Assembly (NCBI GenBank): GCA_037137455.1
Contig: JBAXKG010000007.1
Coordinates: forward strand, 12,036-76,035
Direction: 5' to 3'
Length of the DNA: 64,000 nt
Source of the DNA: Bacteroidota bacterium
Lineage (GTDB): Bacteria > Bacteroidota > Bacteroidia > Bacteroidales > FEN-979
The position numbers and the translations under genes are program-made. The notes under the pieces were generated by a model. It saw only the letters and a list, made by a program, of their open reading frames with translations, was not told the origin of the DNA and made no database searches. Shown here piece by piece: positions 19,317 through 41,421 of the stretch (positions are counted from its first letter, which is position 1; every line of letters starts with the position of its first letter).

Positions 19317-20612
19317 TCATTCCCAATCAAGGCTTTCAAGTATCGATATTAATTCAAATGGGCGGTAGGGTTTTGCAATATATTCGTCCATTCCGGCAGC
19401 TAAACATTTTTCACGGTCAGTAACCATCACATGGGCTGTTACCGCCACGATCTTTATTCTATTTGACCCTGCTGTTTCCAATTCACGGATCACACGCGTT
19501 GCTTCAATCCCATCCATAATTGGCATAGCGATATCCATAAGGATCAGATCGTAATGAGAATTTTTAAATTTTTCAACCGCAATTTTTCCGTTTTCAGCAA
19601 GTTCAACGTGATGACCGGCACGCACGAGGCTTGTCATTGCAAATTTTTGATTTAAAAGATTGTCTTCAACAAGCAATATGGAAAGTGGTTTCAGTACTTT
19701 TTTTTGAGATATTCTTCCGAGCCGCTCATTGGCAAGCAGTTCATCATCTCCCTTTTCTAATAACAATGAAAACCAAAAGTTCGATCCATGACCTTTTTCG
19801 CTTTGAACACCTATTTTCCCATTCATCATACGAGTGAGATTTTTGGAGATCGAAAGTCCTAAACCTGTTCCTTCAAATTGTTTGACCAACGGATTTTCCA
19901 ATTGGGCAAAATCATTAAACAAGCTTACTTGTTCTTCAGGAGAGATGCCTATTCCGGTATCAATAACTTCAAATTTCAATAATACGGATTCTGGATTCAA
20001 ATTGGCACGATCTTTTAGATCGTCAGGAATAAATTCTCTGTTTTTATCGAAACTATTACTTTTAAGATCTATGGTTTCAACAGCTACCAAAACATGTCCT
20101 TGATTTGTGAATTTTATTGCATTATTAGTGAGGTTGATCAGTATCTGCTTTAATCTCACCGGATCACCAATTACACAAGTTGGAACCGTTGATTGGATCT
20201 TTGAAAAAAGATCAATACCTTTTCCTTTTGCTTTAATTGATAAAAGTTTTATAACCTGATAAATCTCTTCCTGCAGGAAGAATGGCTTCTGGTCTAATTT
20301 CAACTGGCCTGCTTCAATTTTCGACAAATCCAGGATATCATTGATAATGGTGAGCAGGTTTACACTGGAAATATTAATAATCTCCAAAAAATCGCGTTGC
20401 TCACTGGTAAGTTCTGTTTGGTTTAAAACATTATAAATGCCAATGATACTGTTCATTGGGGTCCTGATTTCGTGGCTCATATTTGCCAGAAACATGGTTT
20501 TTGATCTGTTGGCATTTTCTGCTTCCTGTTTTGCTTTTATAAGGGCATTGCGTACTTTTTCATGCTCTTCGATAGTAACAAAACCTTCTTTATTCCCTTG
20601 CAAGTCTTCCAT
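19317..20612 (-). CDS. cytoplasmic hybrid histidine kinase (HisKA-HATPase_c-REC) with no recognisable sensor domain
   Basis: H-box [13 protein letters not shown]1 and G2 boxes are NNAIKFT, DTGIGI and GTGLGLSI. The receiver reads [10 protein letters not shown]...[13 protein letters not shown]...AKPY. No TM helix, and only about 35 aa precede the H-box. Confidence 0.9.
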
Positions 20613-20613
20613 T

Positions 20614-22026
20614 TTATAATTTATTCAATTGATTTTTAATGATAGAGTACAATTCCTGCTGGTTGATTGGTTTGGATATATAGTCATCAAATCCGGCTTC
20701 AAGAAGCTTTTCTTTATCCCCGGCCATGGCATAAGCCGTTTGTGCTACGAAAGGGATTACCTTATATTCCTTCCATTTTTTTCTTATTTCCTGCATCAAA
20801 CGGATTCCGTCCCATGGAGGAGGAAGGTTTATATCAAAAAGCATAATGTCGAAGATTTTTCCATCCTTGTAAGTTTGCTCCATTATTTTCATTGTTTCAT
20901 CCCCATTGATTGATGTCACAACGTTACCAAGTGATTTTGTCATCTCGTACAGTACAATTTTGTTCATAAGGTCATCTTCGACAATGAAAATTTCGAGGCC
21001 TTGTAATGTTTTGAATTTTTGTTTTCGCGATGGTTCTTTTTTAAACTGATCATCTGTGCTTGCTTTTTCGGGAGGGAAAAAGATGGTGACAGTTGTGCCG
21101 ATCCCTTTAGCAGATTCGATATCAATTCGCCCCCGCATCAATTCCACAAGGCTTTTTGCCAGTGGCAATCCCAAGCCTGCACCTTGCGACTCATTAGAAT
21201 ATCCAAGGCTTTCCTGCCTGAATGGATCGAATATTACTGGCAGATAAGAAGGGTCAATACCTGTACCCGTATCTTTTACCCTGATACAGATCTCATCCTT
21301 TTCTTTAATAAATTCAGTCGAAACATTTATAAACCCATTTTGTGTAAATTTTATTGCATTTTCAACAATAGCGCTGATAACTTTAGTCAACCCTTTTTCA
21401 TCGACATATGCAGAAGGAACCTCATTGGTCTTTAAATTCAATTTCAGTTTTTGCTCGTTGGCTTTGAATATATATAACTGGGTTGCATTCGCCACGATAG
21501 TATTTATATCGCATGGTTTTAACATTACCTGCATATCGTTTGCCTCAAGTTTGCTGATATCAATGATATTGTTCAGCAAATGAAGCAACCTGTCACCACT
21601 TTCTGAAATAGCCCTTGCGTAATCAAATAATTCCTTGTTCTCAATCAATGATATTTCAGCTTCAAGCAAGCTTGAAAAACCTATGATGTTGTTTAACGGA
21701 GTACGGATTTCATGACTGATATTCGAAAGAAATGCATTCTTCATAAAGTTTGATTCCTCCGACCGTTTCAAAGCCCGTTTTAGGGTGAAATCAACTTTTT
21801 CGTCCGCTTCGTAGTCCTCCTTAATTGATCGTATTCTCTCCTGAACTGTCGTTTCAATCGATTCTTTAAGTTCTTCAATATGGGTAATTGTTTTATCAAG
21901 CTCGGCGCTCTTAGTTGCTAATAAATCAGATACTTGTCGATTTTTTTTGATGAATATAAAAACAAACGCCAGGCAAACGAAAAGTGCAAGAAGTAAAATA
22001 GATAATAAGATAATTGTACTTTGCAT
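20614..22026 (-). CDS. membrane-anchored hybrid histidine kinase (TM-coiled coil-HisKA-HATPase_c-REC)
   Basis: One N-terminal TM helix, then H-box [11 protein letters not shown], then ENAIKFT, DTGTGI and GAGLGLPL. The receiver reads [10 protein letters not shown]...MLFDINLP...SKPI. Confidence 0.9.
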
Positions 22027-22034
22027 GCGGTTAG

Positions 22035-22841
22035 CTATTTATAAACAACATATAAATCTTCGTCAGGATTAATTGCATATTGATGAATATTGTCTAACCA
22101 TTTTTCTTTTGTCGGATTAAATATTTTTACAATAAAACCACCCTTTTCAAGACGGCTTTTATAATCCTGTCCATAAATTCGTACGTGATCAAACTGGCCA
22201 AAAACACGTTCCCGGGTCTCCGGATCAATTGCTGTCGGATCTTCAAAAGTTTTTTCTAATATTTTAGAAATCGGAACTTGCAGAATAGCCCATCCACCAG
22301 GTTTCAGTACACGGTAAAGTTCTCTGATAGCTAATGCATCATCAAGTATATGTTCAAGTACATGATTACAAATGATAACATCGAATGTTTCATCATCATA
22401 AGGGATGAATGTGATATCCAAAAGGTTGGTTTGACGCGCATAATAATAGCCTTCAAGATATTTTACACCCGGAACGTAGTTGACATTGGAAATAGAATCA
22501 AGTAATGCCCGTAAGCAACCTTCGGGGGCCACGTGAAATAATGTTACCGGTGAGGTGAAAATAGTCGACTTCTCATGAAGGTAAAGATATACAAGTCTGT
22601 CTCTGTCTAATGAGTAGCAACGAGGGCAAACATTGTTTTGCCTGTATCCGGCTCCAACAATCTGTTTCTCATAGAGTACAGGAAGATCCGATCCGCCAGG
22701 TAAGAACTTGCGAAATGATCTCTTGCAATAGGGACAATAATAGGAGTCACCGGAGTAAAAGAATCCACTGATTTTTTGATAACCACCCCTCAACTTCCTG
22801 CCAAGCCAAAAAGGTATCAGATTTTTTAATGCACTTTTCAT
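22035..22841 (-). CDS. class I SAM-dependent methyltransferase with N-terminal Cys4 zinc-ribbon
   Basis: CPYC...CPRC in the N-terminus. The methyltransferase core reads FDVIICNHVLEHILDD...LKPGGWAILQVP. Confidence 0.75.
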   Translation of the reverse strand: MKSALKNLIPFWLGRKLRGGYQKISGFFYSGDSYYCPYCKRSFRKFLPGGSDLPVLYEKQIVGAGYRQNNVCPRCYSLDRDRLVYLYLHEKSTIFTSPVTLFHVAPEGCLRALLDSISNVNYVPGVKYLEGYYYARQTNLLDITFIPYDDETFDVIICNHVLEHILDDALAIRELYRVLKPGGWAILQVPISKILEKTFEDPTAIDPETRERVFGQFDHVRIYGQDYKSRLEKGGFIVKIFNPTKEKWLDNIHQYAINPDEDLYVVYK

Positions 22842-22852
22842 AGCATTGAATT

Positions 22853-24547
22853 TTAATGGTTTATCTTTATTAGTTTTGCGGTATGTGAAATTGTACCGGA
22901 TTGAACAGAAAGTGTATATATTCCCGGAATTAAAAAATCTCCCCTGACGACAAATTTAAACTTTCCGGGCAGCATTTTTCCAGATTTTTTTGTTAATATA
23001 TTTTTTCCTTCACAATTAGCTATGCTTATCGTAATTTCTGACTGTTTTAATAGTACATACGATATGTTGAAATCACTATAAGAAGGATTGGGGAAGACCT
23101 TCAGCATTAATTCTTCGGAATTTTCATATTCTATTACATTGAGCAACGATGAATCCTGGCATTCGAACGCTCCGATGTCAAAAAACGAAGCAAACGGACG
23201 TACCCTGTTTGATAAATCGAAATTAAGATTAAACCCTTCAATAGCTGAAGCGCTATTTACAGCCGGTGAGCTACGTTTTAAATCATAGTTTCCTTCAGAA
23301 TGGTTGACAAAATCAACAGAAAAAATATCCAATGTTTTGATATTATTTGAAATAGTTATCTGTATCGATGGTGAACCCAGGTTGATATAGGCATTTTCGC
23401 CCTCTGAAGGAAAAGAGCCGGGGTTTACAATGATGTTGTTTGAAATGAAGTTCTTTGTGCTTTGGGTGTCATCAAACCGTATTCCATAGCTTTTTGGCGA
23501 GATGATCGTATTGAACAGGATTATATTTGTATTTGCCGGAGAAGTATATTCTGCCCCGATATATATTCCATACTTCAGGTAGGGAGAATAATTTTGGTCT
23601 GGTTTAAAGGTTGATCCCGCGTTAACTATTAAGTTGTTATAAATTTTTTGGATTCCCAGGGAAATTACTTCTATGCCATCGCCTTTCCCATCTTTAATGG
23701 TGTTGTTAAATATATTGCCCTGTGTTCCGCCCCCGACCATAATTCCCGACATTTGATAATAATATTCCGACTTGCTGTCACTCAAAATCACGTTGTCATA
23801 AATGTAACATCCTGAATCTGCCGAACTAACCTGGATGCCATCCCATCCGGTTTCCTGAACCACGTTGTTATAAATTTCGATGCCCCGCAAAAGGTGAGGC
23901 AGAACAGTTGTATCTGTACTACCGCAACTTATCGTCTGCCCTTTGTACTTTGAACTGCCCAGATACATTCCTTCATACATGATATCATGAATAAAGGTAT
24001 CGTGGATTTTTAAATTTCTAAGGGTGAATTTTTCACGGGTCGATGTAAACTGGCAGTTTGGATCAGTTTTGGCAATTATTCCACTTTGGCCTGTGTTGCT
24101 GATTTCCACCCTTTCGATCTCAATATCTGTACTTAAACCGTCTACTGAAAGACCAACCCCCGCCGGGCTATCAACTAATATCCCGTACTGCAATGCATCA
24201 ACTCCCGCACCAGAGAATTTAAGGTAGGAGCAGGAATCAAATTTAACGCCATAAATAGAACTTTCAAGAATCGAAACCAATCCATCGGTATTTTGAATGA
24301 CTATGGGGTTTAATTTTGTACCATGCAGGTACGTTACAAGCAAAAAGAATTTTTGTCCTTTTTGCAGACAGATCGTATCACCTGGTCTGACACCGGATGC
24401 ATTTGTTTGGCCATTGATAATAGTTACTGTTGAATCGAATTGGAATTTGCAATTCCTGGTCTGAGTAAACCCGGTACAGGCAGTCATCATCAGTACGATA
24501 CCCGTTGAAATCGTTATAAATGTTCGGAAAATGAACATATTTATCAT
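22853..24547 (-). CDS. secreted right-handed parallel beta-helix protein with T9SS type A sorting domain
   Basis: Signal peptide. It has many repeats of the NN(V/I)I.....GI type (YNNVVQETGWDGIQV, IYDNVILSD, FNNTIKDGKGDGIEV, YNNLIVNAG). The C-terminal KVFPNPSYSDFNISY...GIYTLSV is the sorting domain. Confidence 0.75.
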   Translation of the reverse strand: MINMFIFRTFITISTGIVLMMTACTGFTQTRNCKFQFDSTVTIINGQTNASGVRPGDTICLQKGQKFFLLVTYLHGTKLNPIVIQNTDGLVSILESSIYGVKFDSCSYLKFSGAGVDALQYGILVDSPAGVGLSVDGLSTDIEIERVEISNTGQSGIIAKTDPNCQFTSTREKFTLRNLKIHDTFIHDIMYEGMYLGSSKYKGQTISCGSTDTTVLPHLLRGIEIYNNVVQETGWDGIQVSSADSGCYIYDNVILSDSKSEYYYQMSGIMVGGGTQGNIFNNTIKDGKGDGIEVISLGIQKIYNNLIVNAGSTFKPDQNYSPYLKYGIYIGAEYTSPANTNIILFNTIISPKSYGIRFDDTQSTKNFISNNIIVNPGSFPSEGENAYINLGSPSIQITISNNIKTLDIFSVDFVNHSEGNYDLKRSSPAVNSASAIEGFNLNFDLSNRVRPFASFFDIGAFECQDSSLLNVIEYENSEELMLKVFPNPSYSDFNISYVLLKQSEITISIANCEGKNILTKKSGKMLPGKFKFVVRGDFLIPGIYTLSVQSGTISHTAKLIKINH

Positions 24548-24557
24548 ATTGCTTCAG

Positions 24558-25739
24558 TTATCCTCTTTTCGCACGTTCCCAATTAACAGATTGTTGTTTT
24601 TTTATATATCTGAAAAAGCCCAGATAGACTGCAAGGTTCATAATAAAGAAATAATATGGAACGTAAAATATTTTAATCTTAATTTTTCTTTCTTCAAGGT
24701 ACCACCCCAATATAGTAATGGTATAAAAAAGAATTTGTCCCCAGAAAAACCATGTATAAATATTTGAAAAATCAAAGATGCCGGTTAAAAACGAGATAGC
24801 CAGATTGCACAAAAAAATAATTGGCAAACCTAAAGGAGCAAGTGTCCAACGCAACACGCGATGTGAGATATACTGAAATGAAAGAATACCGTATTTGAAA
24901 GGATTCAGCAGCTCTTTTAGCCTGATTATTGACTGGATACCTCCTGCTGAGATTCTTATTTTACGCTTTAGTTCTTCTTTTACGTTGGCAGAAGGATTTT
25001 CGATGGCATAAGCTTCAGGGTCATATTGTATTATATATCCCTGTTCGGCAATTCGAAGGGAGATAATAAAGTCGTCAAGTAAAGTGTCTTTTTCAATCGG
25101 ACTAAACAGTTCAGTTCGTAGGGCAAATAATTCTCCTGCGGCGCCCACTACTGAGTACAACCGGGCATCCAACTGTTTCAGTTTCGACTCATACTTCCAG
25201 TAAATGCCCTCAGTGGCCGCGGAAGTGTTTTTTAAGAAAATACGTTTTTCCCCTGAAACGCAACCAACCTTAGGATTTCTGAAGAGTTTGACAATCCGGC
25301 GAATGGATTCACTTCCGAGCATAGTATTCCCATCCGAAAAAATCACAACCGGTGTCTTAACGAATTTCATCCCACGGTTCATTGCAGCAATTTTACCGGC
25401 ACGTTCAGGTTGATGATAAACTTCAACCCCTTCGTATTTGCGCAATAAATCAGGTGTTCCGTCATCTGATCCATCGGTAATCCAAACGTACCTGACTTTT
25501 TCCTTCGGATAATCCAATGAAAAGGAATTTTTAAGTTTCAGATCAACAAAATCTTTTTCGTTAAAGGCTGTAACAAATAAAGTCACTTCTGGCTCATAAT
25601 CTTCTATTTCCACCATGATATCTTTTTTTGCAAACATCTCCTTCATTTTAACCAGGAGAAGCAGTAAAATGCCATATCCGATATATGAATAAAAAACCAA
25701 CAGCAGAAAAGTCCAAAAAATAATTTTTAGTGTGACCAT
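24558..25739 (-). CDS. membrane glycosyltransferase family 2 (synthase-like topology)
   Basis: N-terminal TM helix, a GT-A core (VTLFVTAFNEKD...ITDGSDDGT...FSDGNTM), and 3-4 C-terminal TM helices. Confidence 0.8.
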   Translation of the reverse strand: MVTLKIIFWTFLLLVFYSYIGYGILLLLLVKMKEMFAKKDIMVEIEDYEPEVTLFVTAFNEKDFVDLKLKNSFSLDYPKEKVRYVWITDGSDDGTPDLLRKYEGVEVYHQPERAGKIAAMNRGMKFVKTPVVIFSDGNTMLGSESIRRIVKLFRNPKVGCVSGEKRIFLKNTSAATEGIYWKYESKLKQLDARLYSVVGAAGELFALRTELFSPIEKDTLLDDFIISLRIAEQGYIIQYDPEAYAIENPSANVKEELKRKIRISAGGIQSIIRLKELLNPFKYGILSFQYISHRVLRWTLAPLGLPIIFLCNLAISFLTGIFDFSNIYTWFFWGQILFYTITILGWYLEERKIKIKIFYVPYYFFIMNLAVYLGFFRYIKKQQSVNWERAKRG

Positions 25740-25741
25740 CG

Positions 25742-27565
25742 TTATTTCCTTTCCCAGGCTTTAGTTTCTGCATTATATTGCTTTAACAGTTTGGCAGGGT
25801 TACCACCAACGATGGAGTATGGTGGTACGCTTTTCGTAACGATGCTGCCTGCAGCTATTACTGAATGTTTTCCGATTCTCACTCCGGCAACAATAACTGC
25901 ATTTGCGCCAATCCAAACCTCGTCCTCGACCACTATTTCAGCCATGGTTGTTTTTTGTTTGCTTGGAGGAATATCAATATCTTCATATCCATGATTTAAC
26001 CCTGAAAGCACAATATTTTGGGCAAACATAATATCATTCCCAATTGTTACCGGCCCAATTATCACGTTGCTCATTCCGATTCGTGTACGGTCGCCAATAA
26101 TTACATGGCCGACGCCATTATTTATCGTTGAAAAATCCTCAATGGTCGAATCATTTCCGATTCTGAAATCATTAAATGGGAAAACATCCATCCTCGTTCG
26201 CCGGCGTATTGTTGAATGCTTTCCCTTTTTATGCTTGATTGGGTTTATAAACAACTTTACCCAAAGCCTGGGGCGTGCCTGATTATTTGGAATGAGCATC
26301 CAGAGCAGGAATTTTTTAATTCTGGGATTTGACTTGAGTTTTGAAAGTAATGACCCTGAATTTTGCTCTTTAGGTTGGGGAGAGCTGCTTTTAACGAGTT
26401 CCATTGCTGAGTATATTTCATTGGCATTGGCTTCCCAGGTATGCCCGCGGGCAAATTTCTCACGCGATTTGGCTAGTTCAGGCGTGTTTTCTTTCATAGC
26501 ACGTTCGACCAGCGACAAATATTCTTCCTTTGTATTTGCCAGGTAGGTGAAGTCTTCAAATACCTGCATTGCCTCTGTCCTGGTTGCAACAACAGGCTTA
26601 CCCATTGAAAGGTATTCATCAATTTTCCGGGGATAATTCCCGATTGTTACTTCATTAAGAATCTGCGGGTTGATAGCAACGTCAAATGTAGATAAGTACA
26701 AGGGCAATTCTGACGGTTTTTTACTTCCAAGAAAATGGACGTTGCTCAACTGATGCAGTTCGCTATTTTTAAAGTTATCATCTTCTGGTCCAACAAGAAC
26801 GATTGACCATTCGGGGCGCTGTTTTGCAAGGTGAGTAATAATTTCAATATCCAACCGAAGGGTAAAAAGAGCACCGATATAGCCAATAACAGGCTTTTTA
26901 ATTTTCTGAATATCTTCAGGAACTGATTCGATCAGGTTCATATCGAAGGCACTCACATCGCAGCCCTGGCCTACATAATAGGATTGGGGGTTGAACTTTT
27001 TGAGGTACTTTGCCAGATAAACAGAATTGGCAACGGCGAGATCGGATTTACGGATTAGTTCAGCCTCAATTCGTATACCCTGAGTCTTCCACCAATCAAC
27101 AGCAATCATATTATCGCGTGAATAATAGATATACATATCCGGTCTTAAATATTCTTTCAGATAAAAACTTCTGAACATATCGCTGTCATTGAAAATAATG
27201 AAATTTTTGAATCCGAGTTTCTCAATGGCCCATGAAATTTGCTTTGCGAATCGCTTGTTATTTATTTTGTTAAAGAAATCGAATAAAGAATTATAAGGAA
27301 TCTGACTAATTGATTCAAGCATAGTTCTTGGATAAAAACTCCATAAATTATCCTGAATTTTTATCAGATTTTCCAGTTCCCCTTTGAGCATTTTTTTCCT
27401 TTTATGCAGTTTCGGGTCGTTTCGCTCTCTGTAAGCTGTTAACCGGTCCATAGGGTAGTTCACGTAAAGAACCCGATTATGTTTTGCAAATTCAAGAGCA
27501 AGATTGATGCAGTTGCTTCCAATGTCACTATCAAAAGCCTGTAACCCGGTTATTACAATATCCAT
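25742..27565 (-). CDS. fusion protein: GT1/GT4-type glycosyltransferase plus C-terminal left-handed beta-helix (hexapeptide) O-acetyltransferase
   Basis: The ATG at 27565 (MDIVITG...) avoids overlap with the upstream gene. The GT-B C-terminal part reads GKPVVATRTEAM. About 170 C-terminal residues carry hexapeptide repeats (IGDRTRIGMSNVIIGPVTIGNDIMFAQNIVL...VWIGANAVIVAGVRIGKHSVIAAGSIV...GGNPAK). Confidence 0.8.
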   Translation of the reverse strand: MDIVITGLQAFDSDIGSNCINLALEFAKHNRVLYVNYPMDRLTAYRERNDPKLHKRKKMLKGELENLIKIQDNLWSFYPRTMLESISQIPYNSLFDFFNKINNKRFAKQISWAIEKLGFKNFIIFNDSDMFRSFYLKEYLRPDMYIYYSRDNMIAVDWWKTQGIRIEAELIRKSDLAVANSVYLAKYLKKFNPQSYYVGQGCDVSAFDMNLIESVPEDIQKIKKPVIGYIGALFTLRLDIEIITHLAKQRPEWSIVLVGPEDDNFKNSELHQLSNVHFLGSKKPSELPLYLSTFDVAINPQILNEVTIGNYPRKIDEYLSMGKPVVATRTEAMQVFEDFTYLANTKEEYLSLVERAMKENTPELAKSREKFARGHTWEANANEIYSAMELVKSSSPQPKEQNSGSLLSKLKSNPRIKKFLLWMLIPNNQARPRLWVKLFINPIKHKKGKHSTIRRRTRMDVFPFNDFRIGNDSTIEDFSTINNGVGHVIIGDRTRIGMSNVIIGPVTIGNDIMFAQNIVLSGLNHGYEDIDIPPSKQKTTMAEIVVEDEVWIGANAVIVAGVRIGKHSVIAAGSIVTKSVPPYSIVGGNPAKLLKQYNAETKAWERK

Positions 27566-27587
27566 ATTATCTGATTTTTCAATTATA

Positions 27588-31137: not shown

Positions 31138-31219
31138 AAGATAATTTATTTTTAAAAAATCCGCAGAATGCCTCTGAAGCAAAGTTATATATAAATCAAA
31201 CCGAATACAAAATCAGTTT

Positions 31220-32143: not shown

Positions 32144-32176
32144 ACAGACTGGTACTATTTGTTTCGGTAATCATTT

Positions 32177-33112: not shown

Positions 33113-33156
33113 AATGTCTGATATTTAATCATGTAATTTATATGACAACCTTTTAT

Positions 33157-33303
33157 TTATGAAAATCCTTGTTCATTTAAACGTTTTTGTTCCTCTTCTT
33201 TTGCTTTGGATTCAGCTTTTCTATGTTGATATAATGCCGTAATGAATCCAATGGGAGTGAAAAGGATTAGACCAATGACCATATGAACAACAACGCCTTC
33301 CAT
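33157..33303 (-). CDS. unannotated 48-aa single-pass membrane protein
   Basis: Translated manually: MEGVVVHMVIGLILFTPIGFITALYQHRKAESKAKEEEQKRLNEQGFS. It has one hydrophobic helix and a charged tail. The ATG overlaps the Wzy-like stop (TAATG). It is below the 60-aa track cutoff. Confidence 0.45.
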   Translation of the reverse strand: MEGVVVHMVIGLILFTPIGFITALYQHRKAESKAKEEEQKRLNEQGFS

Positions 33304-34796
33304 TATATTTTTTTATCTGATAATTCAGGTTGCATTCCACTTGACTTTTCGGCTAATTGTTTCTCCAATTCCGGAGCAATGAACACATAGGCCATACTTG
33401 CATATATCAAAACACCGGTTGGGAACTGCCCAAGGACTGAATTTCCGTAACTAGCCACTATTATACCGAAAATCCCGGATAAGAGCGCTCCAATTTTAAC
33501 GAATATTTCAGGATTTTTTAATTCATACATACAAATAAAAGATCCCTTTCCAATGATAAATCCAAGAACAAACAGGTGCAAGTACAATCCGACAATACCG
33601 TTTTCAGCCCAAATCATAACAAACCAGCTATCCGTGGCTGTATTTGCAAGGAAGGTATCGGGTGTATATTGTAATGCCCTGTTTCCGGCATGGCCAATAC
33701 CTCCTCCGAAAGGTCTGGTTTTCAAATATTCCTCAATCAGCTTTTGATTGGCAATACGGACCAGGTACGAGGCATCTTCTTCAGGTCTGAATGCCGTTCG
33801 CATACGATAAATCTGATAATTGGTATTGCCAATATATGTATACCGGAAGAATGAATAAAAAATCAGCAATACTATGCCCCCAATAAAAATTACCTTTATA
33901 TTCTTACGTAATATCATGTAAAGAAATAGTCCTCCCAAAGGAACAAAAATAGCGCCCCGGGTACCGGAGCTTGACATTCCATAAAAACCGGCAATCATAA
34001 CAACTATCCAGAAAATACGTTTCTTGATATTTTTTTCATTCATCATCAGGATAGAGGCAATTAATCCAATTTGTCCCTGGGCTGCTCCAAACTGTCCGGC
34101 ATCAGTATAAAACGAAAAAGCCCGAAGGTTACCAAGGAGAACATGGGTAACGGCTCCACCCTCATCAAGCCATCTTTGTTCCCATTGATCGGGCCCGATA
34201 TTTATTTGCATCCATGCTTTAATTGAGGCAAGAATAGAGAATATACCCCAAATCATCAGAAATTTATCGAGATGGCGTGGTGTACTGTACAGCATAAAAA
34301 CCAAGGGTATAGTCAGGATCATATAAAATCCTATTCCGCGAAATGCAGAGAACCAAGCGGCTTTACTAATGGCTTCAGGATTAAAAAATTCCAGACATAT
34401 ATATGCAAACCAAATAGCCGATAATAAGATCAGGTCTAATTTTAAGGATTTGAGAGGAAATTTTTTATCAAAATAATGGAAGAACACAGCTATGTAAATC
34501 ACGATTAGAGTGATGTCCATTACATATCCCAGCCTAATAGGCAAATACCGGGTCAACCCCATCAGGATGAAGTTGATAATAAATGCAAAGGTGAGTCCGA
34601 TTTCAGGTTTTATTATCAACCGGTTAAGGGCATAAACCATAAATGGTAAAACCATCAATGCAGAAGCCACGGTTAACCCGCCTTTTGCAATAACATACCC
34701 GATTCCAACAGCCATTACTAGCATGGATCCGATCAAGAATGGATCTTTAAGGCGTTCGGCGCCTGTTTTGGAGAGAAATGGGTTAGCCTGATTCAC
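33303..34796 (-). CDS. wzy: O-antigen ligase/Wzy-family polysaccharide polymerase
   Basis: At least 10 predicted TM helices with a large loop (NLRAFSFYTDAGQFGAAQG) typical of Wzy_C proteins. The track ORF (to 35021) overlaps wzx by 217 nt. The GTG at 34796 lies 8 nt after the wzx stop. Confidence 0.7.
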   Translation of the reverse strand: MNQANPFLSKTGAERLKDPFLIGSMLVMAVGIGYVIAKGGLTVASALMVLPFMVYALNRLIIKPEIGLTFAFIINFILMGLTRYLPIRLGYVMDITLIVIYIAVFFHYFDKKFPLKSLKLDLILLSAIWFAYICLEFFNPEAISKAAWFSAFRGIGFYMILTIPLVFMLYSTPRHLDKFLMIWGIFSILASIKAWMQINIGPDQWEQRWLDEGGAVTHVLLGNLRAFSFYTDAGQFGAAQGQIGLIASILMMNEKNIKKRIFWIVVMIAGFYGMSSSGTRGAIFVPLGGLFLYMILRKNIKVIFIGGIVLLIFYSFFRYTYIGNTNYQIYRMRTAFRPEEDASYLVRIANQKLIEEYLKTRPFGGGIGHAGNRALQYTPDTFLANTATDSWFVMIWAENGIVGLYLHLFVLGFIIGKGSFICMYELKNPEIFVKIGALLSGIFGIIVASYGNSVLGQFPTGVLIYASMAYVFIAPELEKQLAEKSSGMQPELSDKKI

Positions 34797-34804
34797 ACTT
34801 AAAA

Positions 34805-36223
34805 TTATGAAAAATATTTGAATTTCGATTTTTTCACTAAAAGTCGAATTGCATTTTCTTTGTAAAAAATATATCCTTTCCTGAATATTTCCCAAAAGGA
34901 GATTTCGATTTCCTGTCGCAAGAACCTGTAACCAACAAAAATACCGATTAGGGAAAATACGATGGATGCCAGGGCAACAAATAACAGCAAGGTGGTTACG
35001 GGCAGTTCGGGAAACAGCCAATGCATTCCGAATACAGCAAATATATCGCCAAGGATATTGGCGGTAGTCATATACAAGACTTTCTGAAAGTTTCGCTGTG
35101 GTTTATTTAAACTGTCCAGGGCGACTCCGGTAAAACGGTCAAGTGGCAATAAAGTACAATATATGATAAACACTACCATGACGTATGAAAGTGCGGTTAG
35201 CGATTCGATATATTTACTGCCTCCGATAATCAGAATAAAATATTTATTCAGGAAAAGACTAATTATGGCTATACCAATAAACAGGAAAACGACTATTCCC
35301 GTATAGGAATAAAAAATATCACGGAAACGATTCTGGTCATTATCAAGGCTAGCTTTTGACAATTTGGGAAAAGCGGTAGTCGCAAAGCTTATAAGAGGAA
35401 TTTCGATGAGTTCGACATATTTTAAAGGTATTGCGTATAATGCAACACCAATCGGACCGCAAAACGCGCTAAAAGAGATAATAAAGCTGTCAGCTCCTTT
35501 CAGAAGGCTGCTGCCGACTTTGGTGCCCATTGAAAACTGGCCATATCTCAGTACCTCTTTCATTTTTGCAAATGATATATATTTGATAAATTCAATTCCG
35601 GTCCATTTTTTTACAAGGCAGAATGCTGAGGTTGCAAAATTTGTAAGTAAGTAAATAATTACGACCACAGTAATATCAATTTTAAAAAGGAAGTATGAGA
35701 TGAAAATAATTATCAGAAAAGAGCAGAGGTTAAAAAAACGGATCCAGAAAATTTTCTTAAAATTCAGTTCAGCCTGAAAGATTGTCCAAGAGTAATTCCA
35801 CGGCAGGTTAATCAATGCCAATACCGGATACCAATAACAAAAAACATCATAACCGCTGTTATTCAGGGCTTCGGGGATAATGAATGTTAAACTCCACAGG
35901 ATAACTGTAAGCGGGATCAGAATCAAGAGTCCGATAGCCCAGCTGGAACCGAGGTAGTACTTTCTGTCGGACACGGTAGGAGATGATAAAAATCTCACCA
36001 GGGCCTCTTTACTTAGTCCAAAACGCATCATATCAATTAGCGAGGCAGGAGCGGTAAACAAAACCCATTTACCGAAATCCGGAATTGATAGCATACGCAT
36101 CAGGATCATAAATGACAAAAGACCCATAATGGCTGTAGAGAAATTAGCCGCTAAGGATAGAAAGTTCAGATCATTGACTAATTTTGAAAGAGTCTTTTTC
36201 AATCTAGGGAGTATTCTTTTCAT
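34805..36223 (-). CDS. wzx: polysaccharide/oligosaccharide flippase (Wzx, MOP superfamily)
   Basis: 472 aa, about 12-14 TM helices, and a flippase-like N-terminus (LSLAANFSTAIMGLLSFMILMRML). It sits next to the polymerase gene. Confidence 0.8.
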   Translation of the reverse strand: MKRILPRLKKTLSKLVNDLNFLSLAANFSTAIMGLLSFMILMRMLSIPDFGKWVLFTAPASLIDMMRFGLSKEALVRFLSSPTVSDRKYYLGSSWAIGLLILIPLTVILWSLTFIIPEALNNSGYDVFCYWYPVLALINLPWNYSWTIFQAELNFKKIFWIRFFNLCSFLIIIFISYFLFKIDITVVVIIYLLTNFATSAFCLVKKWTGIEFIKYISFAKMKEVLRYGQFSMGTKVGSSLLKGADSFIISFSAFCGPIGVALYAIPLKYVELIEIPLISFATTAFPKLSKASLDNDQNRFRDIFYSYTGIVVFLFIGIAIISLFLNKYFILIIGGSKYIESLTALSYVMVVFIIYCTLLPLDRFTGVALDSLNKPQRNFQKVLYMTTANILGDIFAVFGMHWLFPELPVTTLLLFVALASIVFSLIGIFVGYRFLRQEIEISFWEIFRKGYIFYKENAIRLLVKKSKFKYFS

Positions 36224-38885
36224 GAAACTGGAAAGTCAAAATCTGTTTCATTGTTCTTCTGAATTTCGATCTATGGCGGGGAAGTTCTCCAAATATGGCA
36301 TCCAGGTATAGCAATTCAACCCCGTTAAGAACGATTTGAGTAGCATGCTTGAATAGTGGAATAAAAGCATTCAAGGCTGAATTATCAGCATCGGTCCATG
36401 AACGGTTAGCCCTGGTTATGAGCAGGGAAAGATCAAATTGCCGGATGAATTCCAGTGGGTATGGATTATTAATCAATGAAGGGATTTCGACAAAAATGTA
36501 GTCAAAGCTTTCCAAATCAATATGTTCATACCCAACCATTAATGATAACAGGTCTTTTGTTTCAAAGAAATTCTCTTTTATCGAGTACTGAATTTCATCA
36601 TCGGTAGGGGGTATCAGTTCTCCTCCCGTCATGTAGAAGGGGTTTCCTTCAATTTCTTTGATATAGTTCAAAAACAGTACGTTTTCACCAAATGATTTAA
36701 GTTTCCGGCTAAGTTCTCTTCCTATACTTGTCTTTCCTTCTGCATCACGTGTGCTGAAGAGCAGGATCATCACTGGTTTTATATGTTGGTCCACATTTGC
36801 CCTGACTAAGGTCAGTTTAACGTTTTGGGCCAGAATTTCAACAAGCCTTGGAATAATGAAGCCAATATCAACAGCATATATTTGCTTAATTATCTGTGGA
36901 TAGACGCCAGCGACTTTAAGTTTGATAAATCGTTCGGCCCTTTCCGGTGTTTTAATGGTTGTGTCGAAGAACTCCATTGCAAGCAGAATGGCTACAACCA
37001 GCACAAAGCCGACAATTGCAGCAAGGAGTACAAGCATAAGCGCTCTTGAACGAATAGGGTTCAACGGGTAGTATGGCGCATCAACAACCTTTATATTGGT
37101 TCTTAATTCATCATCCTGTTGACGGAGTTTAGCGAGGTTTAAATCGTGCAGGAGTTGTAAAAACTCACTTTCATTAACGCCGATCAGCCGTTCCATCCTT
37201 TTCAATTCAGCGCCAAGAGGGGCGAAAACTTCGTAAACATGTTGAAAATATTTTTTCCGCTCGGCCAGAACCCTGAATGCTGCTTTACTCTCTTCGTAAG
37301 CAATGACATTTTTAAGCCAGGCATCCAACAACTCTTTTGTAGGCAGGCCTTCCACGCTGTTTGTCACCACGTAAAGACGGTCGATATTGTCTTTTATAGC
37401 TTGTTTTATATTCTCAACCCTCGATTTAAGACTGGCAAGTTGCAGTATTGTTGCAGAATCGTTTCCAAGATCGATCTCTATATTTGCAATTTGCATTGTT
37501 GTTTCAGACAATTCGTTACGTAAACGAAGTATAGCGCTGGTATTTAGCGAAAGTTTGGCATGTGTTTCCAGTTTTTTTTCAATGATTTTTATCGCGGCAT
37601 CAGACGAGGCAAATGCAATCTGTTTGTTTTGAAGTGAAACATCAAGTTCTTCCTTGGTTATTGCGATAATTTTTGTTTGTTCGTAGTAGTTGATAATATT
37701 ATTTCGTTCATTAAAGTCCAGCAATTCAGTCTCGGCTTTTTTCAACCTGCGTGCAGCATTTTCCAATTGACGTTTAAAATACTGGATAACGGCATCTGTT
37801 TGATTTTGCTTCAGGAGTTTATAATTAACTATAAAAATCCGCGTCAAAAAAATGAGGGTCTGCTGACATATACCCGGGTCGGGGTTTGTGTATGTAAGCT
37901 TTACAAGGTCACTGCTCTGGATCCGGAATATACCAACTGTTGAAAGGGCTTTAATACTGTAAAACCTGTCGTCCTGGGAACTCCACAATTTATATATAAA
38001 GTTGTAATCGTTTTGGTGTCCGTAGGCAAGCAGCAGCTTAACGATTCTGTCAAAAGCAGAGGAAGAGGTACTCTGGGTTCCCCGTGTCAAGGAGATCAGA
38101 GTATCGCTGCTGGTAAAAGCATCTGTTATACGTGAAATTGAGTCTCCAACGAGAGATTGGGAGGCAGGGGAGGGTTCCGGATCAAAGGTTTGCTCAGGTG
38201 TGGGCGAGGCTTCCGGTAAATCTTCTCTGTTATTGACTATTAATTTTTGTCCGACCGAAATGTCATTTCCTCTTAAATTATTATAAGACATTAATTCGTC
38301 AACACGTAACCCATTTGTTTTGGCAATAGAGTACATTGTTTCACCACTCCTGACAACATGAAATTTTTTCGTTCTGTTTAACCGGGAATGGGATTCAGAA
38401 TATTCTGCTATCTCATCCTGTAAATCGTTTTTGTAGAGTGATGTATCAAGGCTGGAAGATTGTTTTGTGGGAGGGCGGTAATATCGTTTATCGCTTCGTT
38501 TTGCTTTTTTTACGATATCAATTATATCGGATGGAACTTTTGCAAGCAGCTCATCATAATTTTCTTTGGAAATATATCGTGGATCGTAATGATCCAGTAG
38601 AAGATGTTGTGCAAGCAAACTAACAGAAACTTCTTCAAGGGTTTGCCTTGATTTGATAAGGTTGATCAGATTGTCGAACAAAGCGGCGGTTACCATATAA
38701 TCGACATTGGCTTGCTGTTGCACAGAATAGCCAGATGTAACGCCGGTATATATTGTGGTTTCAGAACTGTATGACCATTGACTTTTCCTTGTAAGAATGA
38801 ATACAACAGTAGCAATAATCAAAGGGACCAGAATCAATAATATAATGTGTCGCTGAAGTAATTTTATGAAATAAATAACTTTCAT
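36204..38885 (-). CDS. polysaccharide co-polymerase (Wzz/GumC-type) with a LysM domain in the periplasmic loop and a degenerate BY-kinase-like C-terminal domain
   Basis: TM1 is at residues 12-32 and TM2 at ALMLVLLAAIVGFVLVVAILLAM, with a long coiled-coil periplasmic region between them. LysM reads HVVRSGETMYSIAKTNGLRVDELMSYNNLRGNDISVGQKLIV. The C-terminal FSTRDAEGKTS is Walker-A-like, and there is no terminal Tyr cluster. Confidence 0.8.
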   Translation of the reverse strand: MKVIYFIKLLQRHIILLILVPLIIATVVFILTRKSQWSYSSETTIYTGVTSGYSVQQQANVDYMVTAALFDNLINLIKSRQTLEEVSVSLLAQHLLLDHYDPRYISKENYDELLAKVPSDIIDIVKKAKRSDKRYYRPPTKQSSSLDTSLYKNDLQDEIAEYSESHSRLNRTKKFHVVRSGETMYSIAKTNGLRVDELMSYNNLRGNDISVGQKLIVNNREDLPEASPTPEQTFDPEPSPASQSLVGDSISRITDAFTSSDTLISLTRGTQSTSSSAFDRIVKLLLAYGHQNDYNFIYKLWSSQDDRFYSIKALSTVGIFRIQSSDLVKLTYTNPDPGICQQTLIFLTRIFIVNYKLLKQNQTDAVIQYFKRQLENAARRLKKAETELLDFNERNNIINYYEQTKIIAITKEELDVSLQNKQIAFASSDAAIKIIEKKLETHAKLSLNTSAILRLRNELSETTMQIANIEIDLGNDSATILQLASLKSRVENIKQAIKDNIDRLYVVTNSVEGLPTKELLDAWLKNVIAYEESKAAFRVLAERKKYFQHVYEVFAPLGAELKRMERLIGVNESEFLQLLHDLNLAKLRQQDDELRTNIKVVDAPYYPLNPIRSRALMLVLLAAIVGFVLVVAILLAMEFFDTTIKTPERAERFIKLKVAGVYPQIIKQIYAVDIGFIIPRLVEILAQNVKLTLVRANVDQHIKPVMILLFSTRDAEGKTSIGRELSRKLKSFGENVLFLNYIKEIEGNPFYMTGGELIPPTDDEIQYSIKENFFETKDLLSLMVGYEHIDLESFDYIFVEIPSLINNPYPLEFIRQFDLSLLITRANRSWTDADNSALNAFIPLFKHATQIVLNGVELLYLDAIFGELPRHRSKFRRTMKQILTFQFHEKNTP

Positions 38886-39685
38886 TAATCTATTTTATTT
38901 ATTACATTAAACTTGATACCGGCAAACTCCTGAAGGAGCATGTAGGCATTGTAGAAGGCGAACCGGGATTCTTCAAAGTCAGTAACTGCTTTACGGTACA
39001 TTTCATTAATATATGCTAACTCATACAAGGTTATTTGCCCGTTTAAAAATTCTTTATCTCCCATTTCCTTTTGCAGCGCCTGGGCATATATGTTTTCATT
39101 TGCAATTTTCAGAATACGCTGGTTAACAATTAACTGGTTATATTGTACAATAATTAATTTTCGCAATTCAATGATTTGATTGTCCCTGATAGCCATCGAT
39201 TTTTCAACCTCTTTCGTTGCGGTTTTAATTCTGTTTTTCCTGTCCCAAAAATCATCCATAGGTAAACGAAGGCTTACGCTAACCAAGGCCCGATCACTAT
39301 TTTGGGTGGATTGCATAATATTTCCTATTATTACATTGTCACTAGATGAACCAGAATTATCTGTTCCGGAAAACCAATAATCCTTTTGTAACAATCCATC
39401 GATGTAGAAATTTTGCATCCATTCCCTTTTTGCTGTTTTAATTTTATATTTCCAAATGGCAATATCTGCATCCTGTGATCTCAGAAGCGGGGAGTTTACA
39501 ATGGCAGAGTCAATCAGGTCTTCGAGGGGAGGAATGCGTAATGTGATATCATCCACAAACGGGTTGAAGGTCACTGATGAATCCTGGGCGTTTCCACTTT
39601 TAAAAAATCCTTGTCCAAAAAAAAACAGTGGAGAATTCAAGAGAAAAATAACCAAAAAAAGTGAGCATCTTGTTTTCATATCCAC
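38885..39685 (-). CDS. secreted 266-aa protein resembling a single TolC/OEP repeat (half-size outer-membrane factor)
   Basis: Signal peptide. LEDLIDSAIVNSPLLRSQDADIAIWKYKIKTAKREW plus later coiled-coil heptads resemble one OEP repeat. It occupies the slot upstream of the co-polymerase where Wza/OPX usually lies. Confidence 0.4.
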   Translation of the reverse strand: MDMKTRCSLFLVIFLLNSPLFFFGQGFFKSGNAQDSSVTFNPFVDDITLRIPPLEDLIDSAIVNSPLLRSQDADIAIWKYKIKTAKREWMQNFYIDGLLQKDYWFSGTDNSGSSSDNVIIGNIMQSTQNSDRALVSVSLRLPMDDFWDRKNRIKTATKEVEKSMAIRDNQIIELRKLIIVQYNQLIVNQRILKIANENIYAQALQKEMGDKEFLNGQITLYELAYINEMYRKAVTDFEESRFAFYNAYMLLQEFAGIKFNVINKID

Positions 39686-39706
39686 TTGTTGATTTTTATC
39701 GAATTC

Positions 39707-40939
39707 TTAGACATTTTCTTTTTGAATGAATATTGTAAACGTTCTAAAAATTAGCTTTATGTCATTCCAGAATGAATTGTGTTCTGCATAATAATTATCC
39801 AGCGCAAATCTTTCCTCTTCAGACATTGTTCCTTTTTTTCCACGTTTTTCCACTTGCCAGAGGCCGGTTAAGCCTGCAGCAGCTCTGAAACGGCGGCTCC
39901 ATTTCTTTTTTGTCAATGCTTCAGCTTCGTTAAGGGGCAGGGGACGGTTACCTACAATCGACATATCTCCTTTAATAATATTAAAGAGCTGGGGTAATTC
40001 ATCAATACTGGTCATCCGGATGAATTTTCCTACTTTGGTTATTCTTGGATCATCCTTGATTTTCAGAAAAGCTTTTTTTGCACTGCGCCGATTATTAGCA
40101 AGCCGTTCACAAATTTCTTCGCCATCGTAGTATACCATTGGCGAGCAGTTTTGGCCTGAAGGTAGCTTTGCGCATTCCGAACAGGTTACCTCAACCGATT
40201 CATTGATATACTGGTTCAAATGGGCAACGTCTTTGATGCGTGAGTCAGCATCGGGGTACATTGACCTGAACTTATAGAAATCAAATATCTTATAGTTAGA
40301 CCCAACCCGTTTGGCAATATAGTAAACCTTACCGCGCGACTCAACCAGGATGGCTATTACGGTAAGAAGCATAAATGGCGACAATATCAGCAGTGCAGAA
40401 AGAGCGACAACCATATCGAAAATACGCTTGGGTAAAGGTGTTTTATATGGAGTCATGTCTTCATCCTGTAGCGACATTGGCTTTGGAACGTATTCTGCCT
40501 TAAACTTATTCAGGAAAAGAATCCGGCTATAAATATTATTAATATTTATTTCTTTATGATAAAAGTCATCAATTCCCATGTTGAAAGCCTCCTGTTTGAT
40601 GCCATTATCCCGAAAAAAGGAGATAACGATAAAGGGAGTTTTCTGATAAACCTTGTTTAATTTGAGTTTCAAGTAAAACAATAAGCCATTTATTCCAGGA
40701 AGAATAAATTCGCAGATGATGGCATCAATCTTATGCTCTTCTTGATAAACCTTATCAAAACGAGTATCCTGGTCCAGGTCAAAAAGGTTAAATTGGTAAT
40801 TTGTTAACCAATAGAGTGCAGCCAGACCATTCGATATTTGTCTAACACTAAATAAATCGCTTTTATCGAACTGATCAATAGTTGGCTGATCATTTCCAAT
40901 ATAAAGGATTTTTAAAGGTGTGAAAGCATTTTCATCCAT
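39707..40939 (-). CDS. degenerate receiver domain fused to a bacterial sugar transferase (undecaprenyl-phosphate hexose-1-phosphate priming transferase)
   Basis: The C-terminal part reads PKRIFDMVVALSALLILSPFMLL...KFRSM...DDPRITKVGKFIRMTSIDELPQLFNIIKGDMSIVGNRPL, which are the WbaP/WecA-unrelated PGT signatures. The N-terminal ~140 aa has a CheY-like pattern with ND in place of DD, and E in place of the phospho-Asp (IDAIICEFILPG). Confidence 0.8.
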   Translation of the reverse strand: MDENAFTPLKILYIGNDQPTIDQFDKSDLFSVRQISNGLAALYWLTNYQFNLFDLDQDTRFDKVYQEEHKIDAIICEFILPGINGLLFYLKLKLNKVYQKTPFIVISFFRDNGIKQEAFNMGIDDFYHKEININNIYSRILFLNKFKAEYVPKPMSLQDEDMTPYKTPLPKRIFDMVVALSALLILSPFMLLTVIAILVESRGKVYYIAKRVGSNYKIFDFYKFRSMYPDADSRIKDVAHLNQYINESVEVTCSECAKLPSGQNCSPMVYYDGEEICERLANNRRSAKKAFLKIKDDPRITKVGKFIRMTSIDELPQLFNIIKGDMSIVGNRPLPLNEAEALTKKKWSRRFRAAAGLTGLWQVEKRGKKGTMSEEERFALDNYYAEHNSFWNDIKLIFRTFTIFIQKENV

Positions 40940-40945
40940 AAAACA

Positions 40946-41344
40946 CTAATTACCTCTTCGTTGCGAGTACAATTCCTTGAATTCCAGGCGTCGTTTAATT
41001 CTTGCAATGAGTTCCTTGGGATTAAACGGTTTAAGAACATAATCATCGGCACCCATTTCAAAGCACCTGATCTTATCAGCGCTCTCTTCTTTACCTGAAA
41101 GCATTATCAATGGAATCTCGTCAAAGAAGCCGCTTTCCCGAATTCTTCGGATAAATTCAAAGCCATTTAAAACAGGCATTTCGACATCACAGATAATCAC
41201 ATCAGGGAGATTTCCGGTTTGCAAATAGAATAGTGCATCCATTCCGTTGCTGATCGAAGTAACTTCAAAATCCTTGTTAAACGTATTTTCGATTATAAAC
41301 CGGATACTTTTTTCATCATCAATAGCGAGTATCTTTTTCTTCAT
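40946..41344 (-). CDS. single-domain (CheY-like) response regulator
   Basis: ILAIDDEKS...DVIICDVEMPVLNG...LIMLSGK...VLKPF contains all canonical receiver residues. There is no output domain. Confidence 0.9.
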   Translation of the reverse strand: MKKKILAIDDEKSIRFIIENTFNKDFEVTSISNGMDALFYLQTGNLPDVIICDVEMPVLNGFEFIRRIRESGFFDEIPLIMLSGKEESADKIRCFEMGADDYVLKPFNPKELIARIKRRLEFKELYSQRRGN

Positions 41345-41363
41345 AACGTCTTATTTTGCTAAG

Positions 41364-41371: not shown

Positions 41372-41421
41372 TTCAAATATGTATGAAATGCAGAAAATAG
41401 ATATTAACAAAAAAGAAGAAG

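Follow-up and report, generated by a model that had tools for sequence, protein, structure and literature searches.

A receiver-only response regulator paired with a pseudo-receiver-bearing priming enzyme in a Bacteroidota exopolysaccharide locus

Layout of the locus and its upstream region

The window analysed here, a 64,000-nt stretch of contig JBAXKG010000007.1 (contig C7 of the 3.37-Mb genome, 96% complete, of an uncultured freshwater member of the Bacteroidales; assembly GCA_037137455.1), contains a locus of 19 open reading frames (ORFs) at positions 19317-41344, all on the minus strand, that begins with a receiver-only response regulator (RR) and a priming phosphoglycosyl transferase (PGT) and ends with two hybrid histidine kinases (HK1 and HK2). 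The nearest public genomes are uncultured Bacteroidales and Prolixibacteraceae metagenome-assembled genomes (MAGs), several of which carry lake-derived isolate names. Domains were assigned with Pfam and NCBIfam profile searches of the locus ORFs. The core of a Wzx/Wzy pathway is present, with Bac_transf, Polysacc_synt and Wzy_C all above the Pfam cut-offs, and, judged from its gene content, the locus is a Wzx/Wzy-type exopolysaccharide or capsule operon. A small phospho-switch protein beside the priming enzyme and two sensor-less kinases at the operon end suggest that polysaccharide synthesis is probably switched at the enzyme and not at the promoter. The signalling genes and the region upstream of them are as follows.

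41422-43479, minus strand: uvrB, directly upstream of the RR gene and on the same strand in every close relative (L004-L020)
41361..41410, minus strand: putative promoter region, two blocks in the 77-nt spacer between uvrB and the RR gene
40946..41344, minus strand: single-domain RR, 132 aa (Pfam Response_reg, E 2e-28)
39707..40939, minus strand: pseudo-receiver fused to a small monotopic PGT, 410 aa (Bac_transf (PF02397) 3e-58, Response_reg 4e-10)
20614..22026, minus strand: HK1, 470 aa (HisKA-HATPase_c-Response_reg)
19317..20612, minus strand: HK2, 431 aa (HisKA-HATPase_c-Response_reg)

A first-pass annotation, made from the sequence alone, had described 19 minus-strand ORFs with gaps of 82 nt or less and five overlaps, and this layout was borne out at the same coordinates. 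Internal spacing ranges from -217 to +44 nt when the longest ORFs are taken, the widest gap becomes 82 nt if the third GT2 gene starts at its first ATG (31137), and five to seven junctions overlap according to the choice of start. The RR and PGT genes are separated by a 6-nt spacer, while at the kinase end, where spacing is 1-11 nt, the HK1 gene lies 8 nt and the HK2 gene 1 nt past the preceding gene; the gene spacing fits a single operon. Downstream, a convergent gene for a 1025-aa cargo protein of the type IX secretion system (T9SS; 16230-19307, plus strand) leaves 9 nt between its stop codon and that of HK2, so that there is no room for separate terminators. No histidine phosphotransfer (Hpt) domain and no DNA-binding family was matched among the locus ORFs on either strand in Pfam or NCBIfam, in agreement with the first-pass annotation, and eight plus-strand ORFs considered as hidden Hpt or helix-turn-helix genes on the opposite strand had no family match of any kind.

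The spacer between uvrB and the RR gene holds two conserved blocks. The first, TTGTTAATAT (41410-41401), is kept in nine of nine related genomes except for its last base or two, and the second, GAATATATTTGCTT (41374-41361), is invariant in the same nine and contains a TAnnTTTG box (TATATTTG, 41371-41364, minus strand) 20 nt ahead of the RR start codon. The adjacent 3' end of uvrB has diverged, the flanking DNA is variable and UvrB itself is only 74-90% identical among the relatives. Because the blocks are conserved while the uvrB 3' end has diverged, there is decent comparative evidence that they form a functional element heading the locus. The box proposed in the first-pass annotation is thus present within an invariant block, but the motif alone is not significant: with 12 copies on the same strand of the locus against 11.7 expected it was dropped as a statistical signal, and only its conservation in relatives carries weight. 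Scans for sigma-70 promoters and terminators gave counts close to the shuffled expectation and such scans are uninformative for Bacteroidota promoters. The intrinsic terminator scan returned no intergenic terminator on the coding strand and no terminator-like hairpin between uvrB and the RR gene, so that read-through from uvrB is conceivable, and the locus may be read or co-transcribed from this DNA-repair gene.

The free regulator, the pseudo-receiver and their pairing

The free RR consists of a Response_reg domain only, and alignment with CheY assigns its phospho-site residues to D9/D10, D53, S83, Y102 and K105. Among orthologues from 23 distant loci, the acidic pair is DD in 20 and ED in two (one sequence is truncated there), and D57, S/T87 and K109 (CheY numbering) are kept in all 23. 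The RR is also the most conserved product of the locus, being 82-99% identical in eight syntenic genomes, compared with 69-85% for the PGT, 57-86% for the kinases and 74-90% for UvrB. On its sequence, the free RR is the likely phospho-acceptor of the locus.

The priming enzyme is, from its sequence and predicted structure, a small monotopic PGT of the PglC-like type. Residues 169-410 comprise the re-entrant helix and the catalytic domain, which Foldseek matched to PglC (8e37, 8g1n) with E about 1e-13 and target TM-scores of 0.79-0.83, and the Asp-Glu dyad (D313/E314) is invariant in the 58 sequences aligned for AlphaFold2 (AF2). There is one hydrophobic segment only, holding LLILSPFMLL with its Ser-Pro break, and no transmembrane (TM) bundle; AF2 predicts a helix over residues 169-200. 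The catalytic domain also bears an insertion of four cysteines (C253, C256, C265 and C277, within residues 240-290) that is conserved in 49 of the 58 aligned homologues, absent in the Parabacteroides-type enzymes and clade-specific. The AF2 confidence is low there, and the insertion may be a metal site.

Ahead of this enzyme lies a receiver fold (residues 9-149; 40493-40915). AF2, with a pLDDT of 79.8 for the whole PGT and about 90 over the N-terminal domain, predicts a (beta-alpha)5 arrangement of five strands and five helices in which E77 closes strand beta-3, and Foldseek relates the domain to the receivers of PmrA, KdpE and DctD (TM-score about 0.8). The domain was aligned with CheY, the free RR and both kinase receivers, and its homologues were surveyed in 110 full-length PGT sequences that are 54-100% identical. 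Where CheY has the acidic pair D12/D13, the PGT has G15-N16-D17, with G15 invariant and position 16 an Asn in 71 of the 110; the phospho-acceptor D57 is replaced by E77 (Glu in 97, Asp in seven, Asn in three and Ser in three); the switch residue T87 corresponds to S107 (Ser/Thr in 89); and the conserved Lys, K109, corresponds to K129 (kept in 51). Given the Glu at the acceptor position, the Gly at the first acidic position and the poorly kept Lys, the domain is an unlikely phosphate acceptor, and its sequence marks it as a pseudo-receiver that is very unlikely to be phosphorylated.

Direct phosphorylation of the priming enzyme by the kinases, with the fused receiver itself accepting phosphate through the Asp-keeping minority or through unusual Glu chemistry, would be compatible with the intact fold seen by AF2 and Foldseek and with the seven homologues that have Asp at the site. 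It is nevertheless a very improbable explanation, as the PGT in the window has Glu, the first residue of the acidic pocket is an invariant Gly, fewer than half of the homologues keep the Lys and acyl-phosphate formation on Glu is not known as a receiver reaction. The first-pass annotation had listed the fused receiver as a phosphotransfer target, and on this point was not borne out; phosphotransfer to it is expected to be negative. Domain searches agree with its labels for the gene order, the exception being the 'receiver' on the priming transferase, which has no Asp to accept phosphate.

Eight related genomes of the clade share the order and strand of all 19 genes and of uvrB, while the contigs of two further relatives end inside the locus. 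A synteny search, proposed as a check by the first-pass annotation, therefore finds the signalling genes in eight of eight full-length loci. HK1 orthologues (57-85% identity) hold the same position in the eight genomes, and in eight of ten relatives HK2 orthologues (63-86%) are encoded on the strand of the PGT gene, 18-41 kb further downstream, the other two contigs ending early. In two relatives (G008, G009; L092-L096) the second GT2 gene is set apart from the third by inserted DNA, 7 kb in one and 20 kb in the other. Despite these insertions the ends of the locus are fixed, with the RR, PGT and export genes at one and the methyltransferase and kinases at the other, and the whole looks like a variable glycosyltransferase core within a constant regulatory and export frame.

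Beyond the clade, 22 of 24 distant loci have a 120-135-aa receiver-only gene immediately upstream of the PGT. Carriers include many Parabacteroides species (among them P. goldsteinii DSM 19448), Tannerellaceae, a Bacteroidaceae MAG, Mucilaginibacter, Cyclobacteriaceae and Imperialibacter, and the pair is usually followed by a 266-aa outer-membrane efflux protein (OEP), a co-polymerase relative, Wzy and glycosyltransferases. Homologous loci devoid of signalling genes, which the first-pass annotation had regarded as telling against its reading, were not encountered in the clade; distant loci, those of Parabacteroides among them, keep the RR but mostly have no local kinase. Candidate orthologues of HK1 and HK2 in Parabacteroides, Cyclobacteriaceae and others were rejected, being only 31-42% matches in much larger kinases far from the RR-PGT locus, so that the locus kinases appear to be clade-specific.

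Using a phylum-wide sample of 401 evenly drawn Bacteroidota genomes, about 30 of which hold a close relative of the RR, a PGT was found <700 bp downstream of the RR and on the same strand in 23 of the 30. A single contig of one sampled genome (G333:C1) bears two separate pairs of RR and PGT genes (L101, L102), with about 154 kb between them. In four sampled genomes the partner of the RR is a plain PGT of 255-271 aa with no N-terminal domain. That the receiver is mostly part of the enzyme, yet in a few lineages stands on its own beside a plain PGT, is the Rosetta-stone pattern expected of interacting proteins. The same distribution bears on whether the signalling genes simply lie next to the polysaccharide genes, unconnected in function. 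These genomes are rich in two-component genes and the link between signalling and polysaccharide genes is drawn from sequence, not experiment, but chance proximity would have to account for the shared strand, the close spacing at the kinase end and between RR and PGT, full synteny in eight genomes despite the large insertions and RR-PGT adjacency across the phylum, and we give it very little credence.

Of the 20 sampled RR-PGT regions inspected for neighbours, most belong to polysaccharide loci, and in three the RR gene is immediately preceded by kinase genes. In L121 (G305:C12:49000-57200), an H-NOX gene and a 1547-aa HNOBA-PAS-HisKA-HATPase-receiver-Hpt kinase directly precede the pair, and a gene for a sigma-54 activator lies upstream of H-NOX; this arrangement suggests polysaccharide priming controlled by nitric oxide (NO) or another haem ligand. 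In a second region, a 685-aa HisKA-HATPase-receiver-Hpt kinase ends 17 nt before the RR, and in a third a CHASE3-GAF hybrid kinase lies upstream of the RR together with CheR, CheB and a receiver-kinase. As far as gene neighbourhoods can tell, the pattern is one of variable kinase input to a fixed RR-PGT pair. No DNA-binding regulator is conserved near the inspected loci, apart from the sigma-54 activator of L121, and the first-pass view that the locus has no transcription-factor output held up: the only free output protein is the single-domain RR right before the PGT, an adjacency kept beyond the clade.

An effect of the RR on a different target was also considered, namely the pair of LysM co-polymerase and TolC-like protein, Wzx/Wzy or a synthase-like GT2, with the pseudo-receiver serving as a constitutive oligomerisation or scaffold domain. 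OEP and co-polymerase genes do follow RR-PGT in many loci, a receiver with Glu at the acceptor can behave as though constantly 'on', without the help of a partner, and the N-terminal domain of the PGT evolves faster than the catalytic domain (36-78% vs 70-90% identity). However, in four of the loci (L113, L114, L116 and L117) the genes after RR-PGT are glycosyltransferases, and the 18 kb inspected contain nothing recognisable as a relative of the OEP nor, in some cases, of the co-polymerase; the PGT is the only invariable neighbour of the RR. A target other than the PGT is accordingly judged quite unlikely.

Source of the phosphate and a proposed switch at priming

Both locus kinases have complete H boxes and intact receivers and stop right after the receiver, and neither a sensor domain nor an Hpt domain was matched in either by Pfam. 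Judged by eye, HK1 begins with about four residues followed by one hydrophobic, TM-like stretch and a Glu/Lys-rich, coiled-coil-like segment ahead of H105, whereas HK2 lacks such a stretch at its N-terminus, where only some 46 residues precede H47; in both, HisKA, HATPase_c and the receiver follow. The 'built-in phosphorelay' of the first-pass annotation is therefore overstated: hybrid kinases with C-terminal receivers are present, but the locus has no Hpt, so that a phosphorelay is not established, and the one free RR is receiver-only, with no output domain. Three Hpt domains occur in the genome, all on other contigs, one in the CheA-receiver protein of a chemosensory cluster and two in PAS/GAF hybrid kinases. 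This cluster (G000:C17:3000-14000) is complete, with CheR-TPR, CheW, a methyl-accepting chemotaxis protein, an Hpt-CheA-CheW-receiver protein, CheB and a receiver-kinase. The phylum lacks flagella, and the cluster appears to be of the 'alternative cellular function' type; if Myxococcus Dif-EpsW is taken as the analogue, it might supply an alternative kinase for the RR, and no link was seen between this cluster, on another contig, and the locus.

Hybrid kinases normally need an Hpt, and this, together with the three Hpt domains elsewhere in the genome and a conserved promoter block upstream of the RR that could be a regulator site, would be in keeping with an RR that is a phosphorelay intermediate or phosphate sink (as are Spo0F and DifD), with the true output being a distal DNA-binding regulator that receives its signal from an Hpt encoded elsewhere, and control exerted on transcription. 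The wider distribution of the pair makes such a role a low-probability alternative. The RR stays beside the PGT gene in lineages with no local kinase and directly follows a kinase-receiver-Hpt protein in others, which argues that it is the terminal acceptor in those lineages, and the inspected loci, L121 excepted, have no conserved DNA-binding regulator nearby.

The only worked example of an RR acting directly on an initiating PGT is one Myxococcus system, from 2025. In Myxococcus xanthus, the phosphorylated single-domain RR EpsW acts post-translationally; it is close to the initiating large monoPGT EpsZ by proximity labelling and, in a heterologous host, increases the activity of EpsZ (Schwabe et al., mBio 2025, PMC12802240). 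RR-assisted dimerisation of EpsZ was modelled by the authors, who guessed that the principle reaches further, and their text, citing O'Toole et al. 2021, states that small monoPGTs can carry receiver domains and that the dimerisation mechanism may not apply to those (PMC12802240). The present locus shares with EpsW/EpsZ a phosphorylatable single-domain RR with no DNA-binding output that is tied to a Wzx/Wzy exopolysaccharide pathway, and the target of EpsW, the initiating PGT, is the same as that proposed here. The enzymes are of different kinds, EpsZ being a large monoPGT with a TM bundle and a cytoplasmic domain of unknown function (DUF) and the locus enzyme a PglC-like small monoPGT with an N-terminal pseudo-receiver; a cytoplasmic DUF that lacks the dimerising beta-hairpin, as in the EpsZ type of large monoPGT, is not a feature of the locus PGT. 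The kinases differ as well (the CheA-like DifE in Myxococcus, two sensor-less HisKA hybrids here), and the two systems belong to different phyla.

A full-text literature search found no paper on this module in Bacteroidota, in line with the first-pass remark that the arrangement was not a recognised mode of regulation, but the principle itself was published for EpsW/EpsZ in 2025. Set against the literature, what is new is the setting of an EpsW/EpsZ-like logic: the phylum is another one, the PGT is small and carries a pseudo-receiver, and the hybrid kinases, which have no sensor domain, are encoded in the locus itself. The combination of receiver and Bac_transf is common to the locus PGT and the survey of O'Toole, Imperiali and Allen (PNAS 2021), which according to the citing text (PMC12802240) lists the receiver-PGT fusion as a domain architecture; the Glu-for-Asp pseudo-receiver, the obligatory free RR neighbour and the locus-encoded kinases go beyond the account given in that citing text. 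The Nostoc Hps locus (HrmK) and Myxococcus eps (EpsF) likewise encode a hybrid kinase or two-component protein with polysaccharide genes. In NCBIfam the locus kinases score 253-286 bits for HrmK, where the cut-off is 725, and 98 bits for EpsF, far below the equivalog cut-offs, and the likeness is one of generic kinase-core similarity, not orthology.

Receiver folds that do not take phosphate are familiar from other systems. In PleD, phosphorylation repacks the interface between the receiver and the pseudo-receiver (D1/D2) and so switches the attached enzyme, and plant pseudo-response regulators have Glu at the acceptor site. As in PleD, a non-phosphorylatable receiver fold is paired here with a phosphorylatable one; unlike in PleD, the two are on separate polypeptides, the enzyme is a membrane PGT and the interface is hypothetical. 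Bacteroides capsule loci, also Bacteroidota Wzx/Wzy loci laid out as one long operon, are controlled by UpxY/UpxZ anti-termination and invertible promoters and use Wza/Wzc-type export. In contrast, none of the 19 ORFs is NusG-like (UpxY) or UpxZ-like and the first two genes are the RR and the PGT, while two-component parts and a TolC-like protein are found in place of these genes and of an outer-membrane polysaccharide export (OPX) gene, which the locus lacks.

With moderate confidence, we favour a reading in which the phosphorylated RR binds the PGT and modulates priming, such that a variable kinase input would feed a fixed, post-translational RR-to-PGT output. Binding would alter the rate of the first, lipid-carrier-consuming step, and the contact would most likely be made with the pseudo-receiver, or with the catalytic domain where the PGT lacks a pseudo-receiver; activation would be expected by analogy with EpsW~P and EpsZ. 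In this clade the phosphate would probably come from the two locus hybrid kinases, one apparently membrane-anchored and the other soluble, either directly from the kinase His with the kinase receivers as sinks or gates or by way of an Hpt encoded elsewhere. It could also come from a different kinase altogether, for which the CheA-like kinase of Myxococcus is a precedent. The first-pass annotation had placed the signalling output post-translationally, on the priming enzyme or the export machinery, and of this the priming step is the best reading, with the free RR, rather than a phosphorylated fused receiver, as the route to it.

Several observations weigh against a switch of this kind. The case for RR-PGT contact, for phosphotransfer and for a single transcript is at the sequence level. 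EpsZ is thought to be switched by dimerisation, while the small PglC-like class is reported to be monomeric, so that the EpsW/EpsZ mechanism cannot be transferred as it is. The kinases are hybrids that lack an Hpt through which phosphate could pass to the RR, and a kinase within 10 kb is absent in 20 of the 22 distant RR-PGT loci. The pairings with plain PGTs indicate that the pseudo-receiver is not required for RR-PGT pairing and would not be the sole contact surface. In addition, AF2 gave no confident arrangement for the chain formed by natural in-frame read-through of RR-TAG-PGT (pLDDT 68.8, pTM 0.35); the RR alignment was shallow, and we deem this outcome uninformative rather than negative. 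A mixed alignment with RR-only rows was discarded, since MAFFT set distant RRs on the pseudo-receiver.

A more specific version of the proposed RR-PGT switch can be offered tentatively, though it is unlikely. The RR and the pseudo-receiver of the PGT would form a phosphorylation-dependent heterodimer acting as an allosteric switch of a small PGT, driven in this clade by a membrane-anchored and a soluble sensor-less hybrid kinase, the input of which would be the condition of the pathway itself, be it the supply of lipid carrier, the lipid-linked intermediates or the export complex, and not an outside signal. The same output would be reused across the Bacteroidota, including gut Parabacteroides, with interchangeable inputs such as the H-NOX (putative NO-sensing) kinase. 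If true, kinases that read pathway state would provide feedback control of carrier commitment.

Little is understood of how bacteria decide when undecaprenyl phosphate, which is scarce, is to be spent on a particular surface polymer, and the locus adds sequence-level evidence for a solution related to that of Myxococcus and structurally different from it (small PGT, pseudo-receiver, free RR) that is conserved across the Bacteroidota. Switching of capsules and exopolysaccharides affects how gut Bacteroidales interact with their host and how susceptible they are to phages, and a protein-level switch, if true, would join the known controls by promoter inversion and anti-termination. Carriers of the pair include culturable Parabacteroides and Mucilaginibacter, in which genetics is feasible.

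Export, glycosyltransferase and other genes

Between the PGT and the kinases lie the genes for export, polymerisation and assembly of the polymer.

38885..39685, minus strand: single-repeat OEP (TolC-like), 266 aa (Pfam OEP 4.5e-15)
36204..38885, minus strand: LysM co-polymerase-like protein, 893 aa (LysM 5e-13; TIGR03007 E 2.5e-12)
34805..36223, minus strand: Wzx flippase (Polysacc_synt 9e-12)
33303..35021, start uncertain, minus strand: Wzy polymerase (Wzy_C 3e-9)
33157..33303, minus strand: 48-aa ORF (tblastn, same position in eight syntenic genomes)
24558..33112, minus strand: seven glycosyltransferase genes (Pfam and NCBIfam; all syntenic in relatives), namely the next seven lines
32177-33112, minus strand: GT2
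31220-32143, minus strand: GT2
29923-31182, minus strand: membrane GT2, synthase-like
28721-29926, minus strand: membrane GT2, synthase-like
27588-28724, minus strand: GT4 (Glycos_transf_1, CAZy GT4)
25742-27667, minus strand: GT4 fused to a hexapeptide acetyltransferase (Glycos_transf_1 and hexapeptide acetyltransferase)
24558-25739, minus strand: membrane GT2, synthase-like
22853..24547, minus strand: right-handed beta-helix protein with a T9SS type A C-terminal sorting domain (Beta_helix 1.6e-10, NosD, Por_Secre_tail 2.8e-7)
22035..22841, minus strand: methyltransferase dependent on S-adenosylmethionine (Methyltransf_11 3.6e-13)

The OEP has a single repeat, which covers profile positions 1-185 of 187, and its gene overlaps the start of the LysM co-polymerase gene by 1 nt. 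No match to Poly_export (OPX/Wza) was found in the locus, where the one-repeat OEP takes the usual position of the OPX, and the single Poly_export gene of the genome is on contig C3. A 266-aa OEP is also found behind the PGT in Parabacteroides goldsteinii (L025:10797-11597), and OEP relatives are found there in many other loci. For a barrel to close, a TolC-like OEP of half size would have to assemble in another number of subunits, six for instance. The co-polymerase matches Wzz and GNVR at 21 bits each, under the Pfam cut-offs, and its match to TIGR03007 is partial; its C-terminal 258 aa, considered as a bacterial tyrosine kinase, had no Pfam or PDB match. A one-repeat TolC-like protein and a LysM co-polymerase where an OPX is expected may pose a separate question about export.

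The beta-helix T9SS protein is, on its domains, a candidate polymer-modifying or polymer-cleaving enzyme. The longest ORF for wzy overlaps wzx by 217 nt, with alternative starts at 34796 and 34724. The 48-aa ORF, which overlaps the wzy stop by 1 nt, had no family match in profile searches and contains one hydrophobic stretch, judged by eye. It is found in the same position in eight of eight syntenic genomes (tblastn, 40-75% identity), and from this comparison is likely a real small protein of the polymerase/flippase complex.

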